DNA from: Escherichia phage ST0
Strand: one strand, 5' to 3'
DNA: 64,000 nt
Sequence record: MF044457
Each line of letters starts with the position of its first letter. The stretch's first letter is position 1. Position numbers and translations under genes: made by a program. Below, in pieces: positions 15,343 to 20,932 of the stretch. Under the pieces are notes generated by a model that saw nothing but the letters and a program-made list of their open reading frames with translations, did not search any database and was not told the DNA's origin.

Positions 15343-15579
15343 ATGGGTGGTTATGTAAACATCAAAACCTTTACGCATCCTGCTGGTGAAGGTAAAGAAG
15401 TTAAAGGTATGGAAGTTTCTGTGCCGTTTGAGATTTATTCAAACGAACATCGGATTGCAGATTCTCATTACCAAATCTTTCCATCAGAAAAGGCAGCATA
15501 TTCTACTGTAGTTTCTGATGCAGCTGATTGGAAAACTAAGAACGCTGCAATGTTTACGCCTACAGCAGTAAGTGGTTAA
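15343..15579 (+). CDS. soc: Soc small outer capsid protein
   Basis: 78 aa; GYVNIKTF...HYQIFPSEKAAYSTV matches remembered T4 Soc. Confidence 0.9.
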   Translation: MGGYVNIKTFTHPAGEGKEVKGMEVSVPFEIYSNEHRIADSHYQIFPSEKAAYSTVVSDAADWKTKNAAMFTPTAVSG

Positions 15580-15588
15580 ATAATTTAA

Positions 15589-15615
15589 GGAATCCTTCGG
15601 GATTCCTTTTTTTTT
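15589..15615 (+). terminator. UUCG-tetraloop terminator after soc
   Basis: GGAATCC-TTCG-GGATTCC followed by nine T. Confidence 0.8.
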
Positions 15616-16124: not shown

Positions 16125-16300
16125 ACAAGATAGTTAAATGGTTTAAAAGCTGGGACGATGGTGTCGGTCCAGAAGATTGGCTGGATGTTCTTGAAGAGAA
16201 TATGGCTAAAGAATTCCAGAAACACGAAGAGAAGCTCATCGAAGATGAAGGCGAACGTATTGTAAAACTTTATATGGGTGAACCATCGAGGAAATTATAA
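16121..16300 (+). CDS. hypothetical small protein
   Basis: Start ATG at 16121 overlaps the upstream stop (ATGA). Confidence 0.35.
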   Translation: MNKIVKWFKSWDDGVGPEDWLDVLEENMAKEFQKHEEKLIEDEGERIVKLYMGEPSRKL

Positions 16301-16764
16301 TGGATGCTATGTTATTTAAAATGTATTTGCTTGAAGCCAAGTCGTTTAAACATATACCAGTAGAAGATAAGACTCCACTAGAAATAGCTATTCTCATTAA
16401 CAAAAGTCTAAATAATCCGCAATATATCGTAGAAGAATTCTGCAAATTGCAGATTCCTAAAGGTTACAAAATTCGTGTAGAGCGAGTTGGAGCTATTACT
16501 CATTCTAAAAATTCTCCGTTTAGTCTTGAAGAAGGCATAAAGGACTTAGGTTATGAATCTACGGAAAATGCAATTTATGTGAATCCTGAAAAGCGTTTAG
16601 ACTTGTTTGAAAAGCGAGACCATAAGTATTTTGCCAAAAAATACTTTATTACATCATTAGCAGATTTAATCCATTTGCAACGAGCTATTTGGAAATTTTT
16701 TAAGACAAAAGGTGTAGCGCTAGAAACATTCTCCGAACCTGCTAGTTTTTATCTCGGTGAATAA
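16300..16764 (+). CDS. hypothetical protein
   Basis: ORF track 154 aa. Confidence 0.5.
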   Translation: MDAMLFKMYLLEAKSFKHIPVEDKTPLEIAILINKSLNNPQYIVEEFCKLQIPKGYKIRVERVGAITHSKNSPFSLEEGIKDLGYESTENAIYVNPEKRLDLFEKRDHKYFAKKYFITSLADLIHLQRAIWKFFKTKGVALETFSEPASFYLGE

Positions 16765-16945
16765 TATGGACTTGATGAGTATGTTTGATGAGCCTGAAGT
16801 TGAGGCTCCTAAAGTGCATCGTAGTGAACTTGTTGATGAACTAGATAGTATTATACAACGTCACGGCTTTAGTTTACCTGTTGAAGCCCTGAAAGACCTT
16901 GCCTCTTATTATGACGACCCTCCACCATGGAGTCCTTGGAAATGA
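16757..16945 (+). CDS. hypothetical small protein
   Basis: ORF track 62 aa; overlaps the upstream gene end. Confidence 0.4.
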   Translation: MNNMDLMSMFDEPEVEAPKVHRSELVDELDSIIQRHGFSLPVEALKDLASYYDDPPPWSPWK

Positions 16946-17105
16946 AAGAGAAATTTAAAGAGAAATTCTTACTAGAAATCAAGGAAAAAGACTTTGAGAC
17001 ATGGTATCGAATGGTGAAAGGGTTGGCATTGCTTTTTAAAGCATCCTTATTCATGTTAGAACAACCTGGACCTGATGGACCTTTAGTAGGAAAGCTTAAA
17101 AAGTA

Positions 17106-17134
17106 GTTTACATTCCCTCCTCTCGTGTTATGAT
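17106..17134 (+). promoter_or_regulatory. early promoter
   Basis: GTTTAC, 17 bp, TATGAT. Confidence 0.5.
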
Positions 17135-17161
17135 AGGCTTATCTTTAAATGGAGGTCTATC

Positions 17162-17743
17162 ATGACATGTCAATCTGAACTTCAAGAACGCGAATACCTA
17201 ACAAATCTGATTGATAGCAAATTCACCAACCAAGAACAAAACATTCTCTGGGCTTGCACCGATTCTAAGGAAGACCCGGATTTCCACTATGAATTAGACC
17301 ATCTTGTTCGTAAGCATATGACTTCTACAGTACCAGTAGAACTCTACCGTGGTGTAACTCCAGAAGAAGTAGAACGTCTTTCCCTTCTTTCTGTTGGATG
17401 TCATTGGTCTCCTGGACGAGTAACATCGTTCACAACTGATTTCAGTACAGCTCGTCAATTCTCCGGGAGCTGGGAATATCAGACGTACACTATTCTTAGT
17501 CTCAGGAATGCTCCATTCATTTTTGATTACTACCAAAACATGGTTAACATTGTACTTGCCGGAAAGAATCCTAAGCATGTTATGGAAGAAACTCGTATCG
17601 ATGTCCTAGATATGATTGAATCTGAACAAGAGTATATGGTCTCAGGTATCTCTAGATTTGAGATTGTGGAAATTGAAGACTTAGAATATGACCCTTTATC
17701 TCGGTTATACAAAATCATTCATTTGAAAATGTTGAATTTTTAG
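17162..17743 (+). CDS. ADP-ribosyltransferase, ModA/ModB family (R-S-E type)
   Basis: 193 aa; ELYRGV (Arg), VTSFTTDFSTARQF (S-x-S/T region), ESEQEYMVSG (catalytic E-x-E-like). Confidence 0.75.
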   Translation: MTCQSELQEREYLTNLIDSKFTNQEQNILWACTDSKEDPDFHYELDHLVRKHMTSTVPVELYRGVTPEEVERLSLLSVGCHWSPGRVTSFTTDFSTARQFSGSWEYQTYTILSLRNAPFIFDYYQNMVNIVLAGKNPKHVMEETRIDVLDMIESEQEYMVSGISRFEIVEIEDLEYDPLSRLYKIIHLKMLNF

Positions 17744-17772
17744 TGTACAAACTCTACCGACGATGATACTAT
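17743..17772 (+). promoter_or_regulatory. early promoter
   Basis: GTGTAC, about 18 bp, TACTAT. Confidence 0.45.
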
Positions 17773-17800
17773 ACTTTTATCAACCACAGGAGAAACCTAA

Positions 17801-18409
17801 ATGTTTATGCCGTGTAATGAATGTGAAATTGAGGAAATGGTTCGACGTGCTCAATGCCCAGACTATCAGGATATGCTTCAGTACAAAATCGATGAGCAAT
17901 TCAGTGACATTGAACAAAGTGTACTATGGCAGTGTATGGAAAACAAGCCAGACAGCATCCAACAAGATTTAAGTGCAATTGTTCGTAGAAATTGGTCTTC
18001 TTCAGTTCCTGAGACAATGTATCGTGGAATCTCTAAGAAAACTATGGCCACACTCGATGATAAAGGCGTTGGTAGTATTATTAAATTTGACAGAGTAATG
18101 AGCTTCAGCCCAGTGTTCAGTGTAGCACGTAACTTCGCTTCATATAATTTTTATGGAACATTTAATATGTTCTGCATCAAAGATGTACCATTTGCTTTCA
18201 ACTTCCGTGAACATATGCTTAATATGATTCTGGCTGCACCGTCTTGTGAGTTCAATGGAGCTTTCCCTGAAGCGACAAGACGGTCTAATGCTAGACTTAT
18301 ATCTGACGAATGTGAATTTATGCTCCCTATAGGGACTACACTGCGTGTAGATTCTATTATTCAAGATGGACGTTATACAATCTGGAATCTGTCTATTGTC
18401 GGTTACTGA
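17801..18409 (+). CDS. ADP-ribosyltransferase, ModA/ModB family (second paralog)
   Basis: 202 aa; TMYRGIS, VMSFSPVFSVARNF, SDECEFMLP follow the same R / S-x-S / E-x-E layout. Confidence 0.75.
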   Translation: MFMPCNECEIEEMVRRAQCPDYQDMLQYKIDEQFSDIEQSVLWQCMENKPDSIQQDLSAIVRRNWSSSVPETMYRGISKKTMATLDDKGVGSIIKFDRVMSFSPVFSVARNFASYNFYGTFNMFCIKDVPFAFNFREHMLNMILAAPSCEFNGAFPEATRRSNARLISDECEFMLPIGTTLRVDSIIQDGRYTIWNLSIVGY

Positions 18410-18483
18410 CTGGATTGGAATAACCGGATGGAACTCAGAACCATTATAACACATAAAAAATTAAAGCATTTTATGAAAAAAGA

Positions 18484-18512
18484 GTGTACACTACCTGAGG
18501 GCATGATATTAT
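18484..18512 (+). promoter_or_regulatory. early promoter
   Basis: GTGTAC, 17 bp, TATTAT, then AGACCTATCA. Confidence 0.5.
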
Positions 18513-18561
18513 AGACCTATCAGCTAAATGACCTAACGTCCGTAAGACAGAGGAAAATATT

Positions 18562-19308
18562 ATGTTATCAAATAATAAAATTAACAAAATCAATCGTCGT
18601 CTTGACCACACCAGAGCTTCTGCGAAGAGACGCTCTAAGGATTTTAACTTAGACTTTAATTACCTTAAAAACATTCTTGATCAAAAGGTCTGCGCTTACT
18701 CAGGTGAATCTTTCAATAACTCTGTTGAAGGTGAGAAATTATCCTTAGAACGTTTTAATAATGATATAGGCTACATTAAAGGTAATGTTATCCCAGTTAA
18801 GAAAAAATATAACACGGCTCGTTCTGATTTAACATTAGAAGAACTTATTGAGAAACGTGACGCTGTTGCAAGACGTATCGCTAATCCTTCTGCCCGTAAA
18901 GTAGAGAAACTTAATCTCGACGAGAAGAAATGGGCCCAAATTAAAAAGGTTTATGGTACTATTTTAAAAATCCGAGCAAAACGTGAAAATCGTGTTAAGC
19001 ATATGGCGAACATGATGAAAAATCAACCTTTATCTAACGAATCTAAACTTAGAATTGTTGCTTTGAAAGCACGCATTAATGGCTCACATCAAGCAGAAGG
19101 CCATGAACTTACTAAACTCAACGTTCTTCTTAAAGGCTCTGACTGGAAAACTAAAACTAAATTAACTGACGCTGAATCGCTTTTCGATACATATGATAAA
19201 GTTATCCAAGGTCTGCAACGTTTTGAAAAGATCGGTTTCATTGGTAAATTAAAATTGAAACGTGGCTTACCACTTAGCGCATCATTATTCCAACTGATTA
19301 AAGGTTAA
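18562..19308 (+). CDS. basic protein at the srd position
   Basis: 248 aa, Lys/Arg-rich; position between the mod genes and dda matches T4 srd; no sequence recall. Confidence 0.45.
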   Translation: MLSNNKINKINRRLDHTRASAKRRSKDFNLDFNYLKNILDQKVCAYSGESFNNSVEGEKLSLERFNNDIGYIKGNVIPVKKKYNTARSDLTLEELIEKRDAVARRIANPSARKVEKLNLDEKKWAQIKKVYGTILKIRAKRENRVKHMANMMKNQPLSNESKLRIVALKARINGSHQAEGHELTKLNVLLKGSDWKTKTKLTDAESLFDTYDKVIQGLQRFEKIGFIGKLKLKRGLPLSASLFQLIKG

Positions 19309-19310
19309 TT

Positions 19311-19622
19311 ATGGTTTATGTATATGCAATAGTTTATCGAGATATGGAAGGATTTACTGTCCCGGTTCCACTTGATGAGCATTGTCCTGCGGTATTTTTT
19401 AGAAAGGATATTGCAGATAAAGTTTTCGATACTCTGAAAACACAGTATAAAACAGATTTAAAAATGGGAGTTCTAAGAATGGTCGAAACTCCGCGTAAGT
19501 TCTGGTTTAATAAGCTTGAAATGAAACACGTTAAACTAGATGCGGAGACGCAAAAATTGTATCAACGAATCCTGGATACAGGCCGTATTGTTAGTATTCC
19601 AATTGCAGGGACTTTACGATGA
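19311..19622 (+). CDS. hypothetical protein (dda.1 position)
   Basis: ORF track 103 aa; overlaps the dda start. Confidence 0.45.
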   Translation: MVYVYAIVYRDMEGFTVPVPLDEHCPAVFFRKDIADKVFDTLKTQYKTDLKMGVLRMVETPRKFWFNKLEMKHVKLDAETQKLYQRILDTGRIVSIPIAGTLR

Positions 19623-20932
19623 CATTTGATGATTTGACTGAAGGCCAGAAAAACGCCTTCAACGTTGTTATGAACGCTATTAAAGAAAAGAAACATCACG
19701 TAACTATTAATGGGCCTGCTGGTACAGGTAAAACAACCCTTACTAGATTCATCGTTGAAGCCCTTATTTCTTCTGGAGAATCAGGTATTATTTTAGCAGC
19801 CCCTACACATGCCGCTAAAAAGGTTCTAAGCAAACTTGCTGGTCAAGAAGCATCGACTATTCATAGCATTCTTAAAATCAACCCAACTACATACGAAGAA
19901 AACGTATTGTTTGAACAGAAAAAGGTTCCAGACTTAGCCTTGTGCCGTGTACTGTTATTTGATGAAGCGTCAATGTGCGACCGCTCTCTGTTTAAAATAA
20001 TGTTAGCTAGTATCCCTAAATGGTGTACAGTAATTGGAATCGGCGACCGATGCCAGATTCGTCCGGTAGACCCAGGCGAATCAACTGCGTATCTAAGTCC
20101 TTTCTTCACTCACAAAGACTTCGTGCAATGCAACCTTACAGAAGTTAAACGTAGCAATGCACCAATTATTGATGTTGCTACTGATATTCGTAATGGCAAA
20201 TGGATTTACGATAAAGTAGTTGATGGACATGGTGTTCACGGATATACAGACCTTAAATCGTATATGATGAACTATTTTAACGTCGTTAAAACTCCTGAAG
20301 ACCTTTTCGAAAATCGAATGATGGCATTCACAAATAAGTCGGTGGACAAGTTAAATTCAATTATTCGCCGAAAACTTCTTGAAACAGAAAAACCATTTAT
20401 TAAAGACGAAGTCATTGTTCTACAGGAGCCATTTACTAAGACATATAAGCTAGATGGTAAAAATATGACCGAAATGCTTTTCAATAACGGCCAATTCGTT
20501 CGTATTCGAGATGCTGTAGAAACGTCTACATTCGTTAAAGCACGTGGTGTTTCAGGCGAATATATGATACGATACTGGAATCTTACAGTAGAAACATATG
20601 GGGATGATGAAGAATACATCCGCGAAGATATAAAGGTTATTTCTTCCGAAGAAGAGCTTTATAAATTCAATTTGTTTTTGGCTAAGACCGCAGAAACATA
20701 CAAATTTTGGAATAAAGGTGGTAAAGCTCCATGGAGCGAATTCTGGGATGCTAAACGTATGTTCACTAAGGTGAAGGCACTACCAGTATCAACCTTCCAT
20801 AAGGCCCAGGGTATGTCTGTTGACACGGCCTTTGTTTATACACCGTGTATCCATTATGCCGATTCAGAATTAGCTAAACAGTTATTGTATGTCGGCACAA
20901 CTCGTGGTCGGTTTGACGTCCATTTTATTTGA
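19619..20932 (+). CDS. dda: Dda SF1 DNA helicase
   Basis: 437 aa; MTFDDLTEGQKNAFN..., Walker A GPAGTGKTT, and C-terminal region match remembered T4 Dda. Confidence 0.95.
   Translation: MTFDDLTEGQKNAFNVVMNAIKEKKHHVTINGPAGTGKTTLTRFIVEALISSGESGIILAAPTHAAKKVLSKLAGQEASTIHSILKINPTTYEENVLFEQKKVPDLALCRVLLFDEASMCDRSLFKIMLASIPKWCTVIGIGDRCQIRPVDPGESTAYLSPFFTHKDFVQCNLTEVKRSNAPIIDVATDIRNGKWIYDKVVDGHGVHGYTDLKSYMMNYFNVVKTPEDLFENRMMAFTNKSVDKLNSIIRRKLLETEKPFIKDEVIVLQEPFTKTYKLDGKNMTEMLFNNGQFVRIRDAVETSTFVKARGVSGEYMIRYWNLTVETYGDDEEYIREDIKVISSEEELYKFNLFLAKTAETYKFWNKGGKAPWSEFWDAKRMFTKVKALPVSTFHKAQGMSVDTAFVYTPCIHYADSELAKQLLYVGTTRGRFDVHFI

Follow-up and report, generated by a model that had tools for sequence, protein, structure and literature searches.

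The two adjacent genes at positions 17,162 to 18,409 of the sequence of Escherichia phage ST0 (record MF044457; the window, i.e. the whole stretch of DNA analysed, has 64,000 nucleotides) are very probably the modB- and modA-position genes of RB69-like Mosigvirus phages, each with its own predicted early promoter, and encode R-S-E mono-ADP-ribosyltransferases (ARTs) whose host targets would, by analogy, be like those of the T4 enzymes. As such the pair is already known, as the RB69 genes have been annotated since 2003 and their promoters were predicted in 2006. The present analysis adds a correction of the serine motif, a promoter layout that differs from that of T4, and an orthology to T4 ModA and ModB that turns out to be weakly supported.

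The gene pair and its genomic context

The two genes, ORF1 and ORF2, lie on the same strand and are separated by 57 nt (Table 1). They had been described in an earlier note on this DNA as two adjacent ADP-ribosyltransferase paralogs that differ substantially from each other, and both parts of this description hold, with the coordinates exact. The proteins are 32% identical over 147 residues (BLASTP, E 3e-26), both match PHROG 832, 'RNA polymerase ADP-ribosylase' (E 5.8e-38 for ORF1 and 7.6e-39 for ORF2), and both are predicted to adopt ART-type folds. Paralogs in the window were counted by an HMM search of six-frame ORFs, while a tblastn search with ORF1, which missed the known paralog ORF2, was set aside. 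When all stop-to-stop frames in the window with 80 aa or more are searched, the Mod-family profile matches ORF1 and ORF2 only (E 1e-89 and 2e-83; the next best frame has 0.15), and a profile search of these frames gave no homolog of T4 Alt.

Table 1 Features of the modB/modA-position locus and its surroundings (window coordinates)
Feature	Position	Strand	Description and basis
mrh-like gene	16300-16764		Homology, RB69/T4 gene order
Predicted T4-type early (sigma-70) promoter, ORF1	17106..17134	+	GTTTACA -35, TGn extended -10, TATGAT -10
Shine-Dalgarno, ORF1	17151..17155	+	GGAGG, read from sequence; 6 nt ahead of ATG
ORF1, 193 aa, Mod-family Arg-type mono-ADP-ribosyltransferase, modB position	17162..17743	+	ORF list, PHROG 832, RB69 annotation, alignment, model
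ORF1 Arg codon	17348-17350		R63
ORF1 Ser codon	17426-17428		S89
ORF1 Glu codons	17624-17626 and 17630-17632		E155 and E157
Predicted early promoter, ORF2	17743..17772	+	GTGTACA -35, TGa, TACTAT -10, 17-nt spacer
Shine-Dalgarno, ORF2	17788..17792	+	AGGAG, from sequence; 8 nt before ATG 17801, 14 nt before RB69-annotated ATG 17807
ORF2, 202 aa, Mod-family Arg-type mono-ADP-ribosyltransferase, modA position	17801..18409	+	ORF list, PHROG 832, RB69 annotation, alignment, model
ORF2 Arg codon	18023-18025		R75
ORF2 Ser codon	18101-18103		S101
ORF2 Glu codons	18308-18310 and 18314-18316		E170 and E172
Predicted early promoter, srd	18484..18512	+	GTGTACA ... TGaTATTAT
srd	18562..19308	+	Srd anti-sigma factor homolog; anchors T4-type synteny
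dda.1	19311-19622		Next after srd
dda	19619-20932		Next after dda.1

Bases 16800-18800 share 97-98% DNA identity with RB69 and about 130 Mosigvirus phages, and the RB69 record has modB (upstream) and modA (downstream) annotated at exactly these ORFs. RB69 ModB (AAP75921) and ModA (AAP75920) are thus products of the same genes, with 98% protein identity for ORF1, 97% DNA identity over the locus and few substitutions. The two records differ in the start of ORF2, which from its first ATG is two residues longer than the RB69 annotation; the spacing of the Shine-Dalgarno sequence favours this first ATG over the second one, annotated in RB69, as the probable start. They also differ in the mrh-like neighbour, which is intact here and frameshifted in the RB69 record.

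The flanking genes are those of RB69, namely mrh-like, modA.2, srd, dda.1 and dda, with small ORFs (the equivalents of modA.2 and RB69ORF020c) between the mrh-like gene and ORF1. The overall order, mrh … modB-modA-srd-dda.1-dda, is T4-like. The pair therefore has the position of Mod-family genes, in the early region with mrh/modA.2 on one side and srd-dda.1-dda on the other.

Catalytic residues

An R-S-EXE active-site motif has been described for T4 ModA and ModB, and mutation of R73 abolishes the activity of T4 ModB (PMC10468400). In our alignment the residues R73, S99 and E171/E173 of T4 ModB, and R72, S96 and E163/E165 of T4 ModA, correspond to R63, S89 and E155/E157 in ORF1 and to R75, S101 and E170/E172 in ORF2. 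The arginine is found in Y62-R63-G64 of ORF1 (strand 60-64) and Y74-R75-G76 of ORF2 (strand 72-76), the serine in 'VTSFT' (S89-F-T91, strand 88-91) and 'VMSFS' (S101-F-S103, strand 100-103), and the glutamates form the pairs E155-Q-E157 and E170-C-E172. The E-x-E form is typical of arginine-specific ARTs. Seven columns (R63, G64, S89, A97, F100, E155 and E157 in ORF1 numbering) are invariant among ORF1, ORF2, T4 ModA and ModB and the RB69 proteins, and they do not vary among 35 homologs either; in a set of 13 proteins drawn from nine phage genera, the arginine, the serine and both glutamates are likewise invariant.

The YRG and ExE-like motifs reported earlier are hence found in both proteins and are conserved across the homologs. 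The serine motif has to be corrected: it had been given as FSxxARxF, whereas the actual sequence is F-S-x-A-R-x-F, with a single x, and it is part of the helix after the serine strand; its serine, S95 in ORF1, differs in T4 ModB and ModA. The invariant serine (S89 in ORF1, S101 in ORF2) lies six residues upstream of the serine of this motif, in the beta-strand V-T/M-S-F. From the order of the elements, the secondary structure and the invariance, we infer that S89 and S101 are equivalent to the serine of the toxin STS motif. Absence of the catalytic glutamate had been named as the observation that would speak against the family, and we looked for it by careful alignment; both glutamates are present and invariant in both ORFs, and therefore the R-S-E family assignment stands.

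Family membership and predicted fold

Precomputed Pfam annotation places PF26816 on all 33 of the 33 homologs recovered. A local Pfam-A scan assigned no family to ORF1 or ORF2; a match to MukF_M (E 0.047) is spurious. The AlphaFold2 models have a pLDDT of 89.2 and a pTM of 0.84 for ORF1, and of 94.2 and 0.88 for ORF2, and they place the arginine on a strand, the serine on the core strand that follows and the second glutamate where a strand begins. When these models were compared with the PDB using Foldseek, the best 50 matches by E-value were all R-S-E ARTs for both models (E from 2.5e-6, TM 0.4-0.59), including Certhrax, iota toxin Ia, CDTa, C3bot, C3larvin, HopU1, XopAI, Vis and Tre1 (among the entries matched are 4fk7, 4h0x, 2wn8, 2c89, 3u0j and 6drh). 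Against predicted viral structures, the ORF2 model reaches a TM of 0.85-0.87 with T4-type ModA and with a Serratia phage 'modB' (0.85 for the latter), and its fold also matches, weakly, that of an Alt protein from an Aeromonas phage.

The predicted fold and the catalytic triad are therefore common to the two phage proteins and the bacterial R-S-E mono-ARTs of the cholera-toxin-like and C3-like types (Certhrax, iota Ia, CDTa, C3bot, HopU1, Tre1), whereas sequence identity to the latter is 8-18%, with no significant sequence match, and the N-terminal three-helix region and the helices before the ExE motif are the Mod proteins' own. A sequence search of the PDB with the single proteins gave chance matches only (nucleophosmin, ArdA, dynein), and a search of the PDB with the family profile aligned only the ExE segment of XopAI ('NEQEV'), which was not significant (E 0.13). 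T4 Alt, a capsid-packaged protein of 682 aa, belongs to the same superfamily, but its sequence similarity to the Mod proteins is not detectable: the Mod profile aligns with the ExE segment only ('SNEMEVILPRG'; hhalign, E 0.17, not significant), and BLASTP of Alt against the Mod proteins gave no match. Net charge and pI are uninformative on RNA binding, as every family member is acidic. Taken together with the catalytic residues, the RB69 annotation and the T4-like gene order, the profile matches and models support the assignment of ORF1 and ORF2 to the R-S-E-type ADP-ribosyltransferases of the T4 ModA/ModB family.

Activity is sometimes lost in duplicated toxin-like enzymes, and the loop ahead of the ExE motif, which is longer in T4 ModB, is shortened in ORF1, so that one of the paralogs might be imagined as a pseudo-enzyme that has lost catalysis and works through binding, e.g. 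as a regulator or decoy. We consider this extremely unlikely, given that the arginine, the serine and both glutamates are invariant in both clades and that both models are confident and show complete ART folds.

Predicted early promoters

A T4-type consensus motif precedes each of the two genes, as well as srd (Table 1), and the -35 element of the ORF2 promoter overlaps the ORF1 stop codon, whose last base supplies its first G. From these three local sites we derived a phage-specific pattern, GTKTAC-N14-15-TGnTAnnWT, which occurs 17 times on the + strand and not at all on the - strand, against 0.07 occurrences expected per strand from shuffled sequences. A generic sigma-70 scan showed no overall excess (16 sites versus 19.6 in shuffles); it recovered the ORF1 site (TTTACA-16-TATGAT with TG, 17107-17134, score 10/12) and the srd site (TGTACA-16-TATTAT with TG), and the ORF2 promoter fell below its threshold. 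The earlier proposal that each gene has its own early promoter is thus borne out at the level of consensus predictions, by motifs that are far above chance and strand-specific.

All three sites are conserved in RB69, which has the same neighbouring genes and the same three predicted early promoters: Pe:13466 for ORF1, Pe:12829 for ORF2 and Pe:12088 for srd, predicted by Nolan et al. 2006 (PMC1524935 supplement). Dhakavirus and Gaprivervirus likewise have a promoter between the two mod genes. There is none between T4 modB and modA, whose promoter, upstream of modB, is common to both genes; T4 modA has no separate promoter because the two genes overlap (ATGA). The earlier claim that the pair matches T4 ModA/ModB in position and size is accordingly correct, and the match does not extend to the promoter layout.

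Relation to T4 ModA and ModB

ORF1 shares with T4 ModB (NP_049636) the family, the size, the R-S-ExE motif, early expression (for ORF1 predicted) and the upstream place in the pair ahead of srd. The two proteins are only 32% identical over the full alignment (38% local identity, 93 bits in BLASTP), and T4 ModB, which is encoded in an overlapping operon with modA, is slightly nearer to ORF2 (32%, 110 bits). ORF2 in turn has in common with T4 ModA (NP_049635) the family, the size, the motifs, the place directly upstream of srd and the predicted structure (TM 0.86), at an identity of 33% (73 bits), while T4 modA lacks a promoter of its own; for ORF1 and T4 ModA the values are 26% and 42 bits. HMM scores also link ORF1 to ModB, with 82 bits on the HMM of T4 ModB and 39 bits on that of T4 ModA. 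The best matches are not reciprocal, as of the T4 proteins ModB matches ORF1 best and the best Mosigvirus match of T4 ModB is ORF2. With the Mod proteins of Moon-, Kanagawa- and Gelderlandvirus, genera that have a single copy, ORF1 shares 43-45% identity, more than with either T4 enzyme.

The family is small: of 1.84 billion representative proteins searched with the profile, 133 match at E<=1e-3, of which 43 reach E<=1e-10. By tblastn it turns up in about 1,050 phage records, almost all of them from enterobacterial T4-like phages. Two mod copies are present at the locus in Tequatro-, Mosig-, Dhaka- and Gaprivervirus, whereas Kanagawa-, Moon-, Gelderland- and Krischvirus, as well as one Klebsiella phage, have a single copy there. 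In neighbour-joining trees with 150-200 bootstraps, the upstream genes of Mosig- and Dhakavirus form one clade, which includes ORF1 (100%), and the downstream genes of Mosig-, Dhaka- and Gaprivervirus form another, which includes ORF2 (92-93%). All deeper nodes are weak: the ORF2 clade joins ModA at 30%, and the ORF1 clade joins ModB at 1-32% depending on exclusions, the lower value applying when all else is excluded.

Six exclusive residues are common to the ORF2 clade and T4 ModA, as compared with one to three for any other pairing, and the signatures comprise NKPD with an adjacent deletion, xFD(R/K)V, F-P-(D/E) and an Asp directly before the ExE motif. T4 ModA itself is an isolated lineage, with at least 95% identity within Tequatrovirus and at most 39% elsewhere among the sampled matches. 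Synteny and these signatures suggest, as the more likely history, that one ancestral duplication gave rise to the pair and that ORF2 is the ortholog of ModA. The orthology of ORF1 to ModB, which is indicated by position and by exclusion only, is weakly supported, and the functional labels ModA and ModB are not secure.

Several of the scores would fit a different history, in which the labels are only positional. The ORF2 lineage would then be a conservative Mod of ancestral type, closer in function to T4 ModB or to the Mod proteins of genera with one copy, and ORF1 a fast-diverging paralog of Mosig- and Dhakavirus with targets that match those of neither T4 enzyme; the duplication would either have occurred independently of that in T4 or have been followed by an asymmetric divergence. 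ORF2 scores higher on the HMM of T4 ModB (99 bits) than on that of T4 ModA (75 bits), and T4 ModB prefers the ORF2-clade HMM (124 bits, against 90 on the ORF1-clade HMM). The two clade HMMs give the single-copy Mod proteins nearly the same scores (155-187 bits), and of the two T4 proteins these strongly favour ModB; that several genera have only one mod gene at the locus is also in line with this history. Moreover, the upstream genes of the four genera with two copies fall into three unrelated deep lineages (ORF1 with its Dhakavirus counterparts, the Gaprivervirus upstream gene, and T4 ModB), and a split that unites ORF1, ORF2 and the single-copy proteins and excludes both T4 proteins has 62% bootstrap support in the neighbour-joining tree. 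This split may, however, reflect long-branch attraction of both T4 proteins to the outgroup. The upstream/downstream order is identical in Tequatro-, Mosig-, Dhaka- and Gaprivervirus, and T4 ModA shares its six exclusive residues and the indel region with the ORF2 clade, whose HMM it prefers by 63 bits (94 bits, against 31 on the ORF1-clade HMM). On balance we find purely positional labels rather unlikely. The corresponding functional proposal is that ORF1 of Mosig- and Dhakavirus is a separately diverged ART with its own host targets that does not correspond in function to T4 ModB, and that the ancestral Mod function is retained by ORF2; we put it forward tentatively, as a possibility that we doubt.

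Proposed mechanism and host targets

For the modB/modA-position enzymes with T4-like targets, the following sequence of events can be proposed. During the first minutes of infection, host sigma-70 RNA polymerase would transcribe each gene from a T4-type promoter of its own, as the consensus motifs suggest, and each product, judging from its motifs and predicted fold, would be a single-domain R-S-E mono-ADP-ribosyltransferase of roughly 23 kDa. Following the chemistry of the family, NAD+ would be bound by the Arg and Ser-x-Ser/Thr elements, and the Glu-x-Glu pair would direct transfer of ADP-ribose onto arginine side chains of host proteins.

In T4, ModA ADP-ribosylates Arg265 of both RNA polymerase alpha subunits, and ModB ADP-ribosylates and RNAylates S1, L2, EF-Tu and trigger factor (PMC2988021, PMC3014915, PMC10468400); the use of NAD-capped RNA as a substrate is known only for T4 ModB (PMC10468400). 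The literature searched contained no experiments on RB69-type Mod enzymes. By analogy with T4, ORF2 may modify, or complete the modification of, Arg265 of both alpha subunits, by which UP-element and activator contacts would be abolished or weakened, and ORF1 may modify S1, EF-Tu and trigger factor and might accept NAD-capped RNA as well ('RNAylation'). The assignment of targets, which draws on gene position and a few common sequence signatures, is the weakest step of the proposal. That the two paralogs have distinct host targets is plausible at an identity of 32%.

Phage ARTs with anti-defence roles are known, and since the protein targets in Mosigvirus are assigned by analogy with T4, one or both enzymes could instead act mainly on a host defence protein, as AcrIF11-type ARTs do, or on nucleic acid, and not on the transcription or translation machinery. 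This seems very unlikely to us: both proteins belong to the Mod family and have a conserved place beside genes of early host takeover (mrh, srd), the E-x-E form is typical of arginine-specific protein ARTs, and no defence-related neighbour was seen at the locus.

Implications for the Mod family

If ORF1 did diverge separately from T4 ModB, the division of labour between T4 ModA and ModB (RNA polymerase on one side, the translation apparatus and RNAylation on the other) would not be transferable to RB69-type phages from annotation. More generally, the names ModA and ModB in non-T4 Tevenvirinae are positional labels, carried by proteins whose identity to the characterised T4 enzymes is only about 30-38%, and caution is warranted in reading from these names which protein of such a phage is the RNA polymerase modifier and which, if any, the RNAylating enzyme.

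Genes flanking the mod pair

The mrh-like gene upstream of the mod pair encodes a member of the T4 modA.3/Mrh family, and its reading frame is uninterrupted, whereas in the RB69 record AY303349 an additional A within an A-run breaks the gene, which is annotated there as two short ORFs, 'mrh' (69 aa) and RB69ORF022c. This break is probably a sequencing error or a strain-specific frameshift of the reference record. Further upstream, a terminator-like hairpin directly follows the soc-like ORF (15343-15579), and is probably the counterpart of the terminator that Nolan 2006 (PMC1524935) gives for RB69 as 'mrh.2<--soc'.

ORF2, in the modA position, opens with two in-frame ATGs (MFMP...), at 17801 and 17807, which lie 8 and 14 nt, respectively, from an AGGAG at 17788-17792. 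The RB69 annotation starts the equivalent gene at the second ATG, and the first is chosen in other records, such as that of protein P0022 (202 aa).

At its N-terminus, over ~100-150 residues, Srd has further matches, with E-values from 4e-18 to 4e-11, among PHROGs labelled HNH endonuclease or endonuclease VII, a hint that it originated from a nuclease-like domain.

Features identified in the window
Feature	Position	Strand	Description
Terminator-like hairpin	15587-15608	both	perfect 9-bp stem, AAGGAATCC-ttcg-GGATTCCTT, T-runs on flanks
mrh-like gene	16300-16764	+	intact 154-aa ORF; Pfam T4_MRH, E 3e-38
srd	18562-19308	+	PHROG 1400 (Srd), E 1.6e-99
Candidate early promoters (pattern matches)	9789, 10223, 11000, 15625, 17106, 17743, 18484, 23208, 35508, 35829, 36416, 38340, 48989, 52292, 59023, 60207, 63740	+	GTKTAC-N14-15-TGnTAnnWT

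Mod relatives and the early region in other genomes

Distant relatives of the Mod ADP-ribosyltransferase domain were found within four very long proteins of 2,000-4,300 aa (P0059, P0069, P0070 and P0072, from the profile search), with several stretches matched to the domain; these may be polymorphic-toxin or polyvalent proteins. In Klebsiella phage kv_tblp8 (L008, 3154-3345), which has one mod gene, dmd (discriminator of mRNA degradation) separates this gene from srd, and the mod-srd early region is therefore a hotspot of gene gain and loss.

Candidate early promoters

Both strands of the whole window were searched with the early-promoter pattern, which gave 17 matches on the plus strand and none on the minus strand (0.07 expected). 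The comparison with the published RB69 promoter predictions took in three of these sites, those near the mod pair. Together, the matches provide a usable map of candidate early promoters for the entire window.
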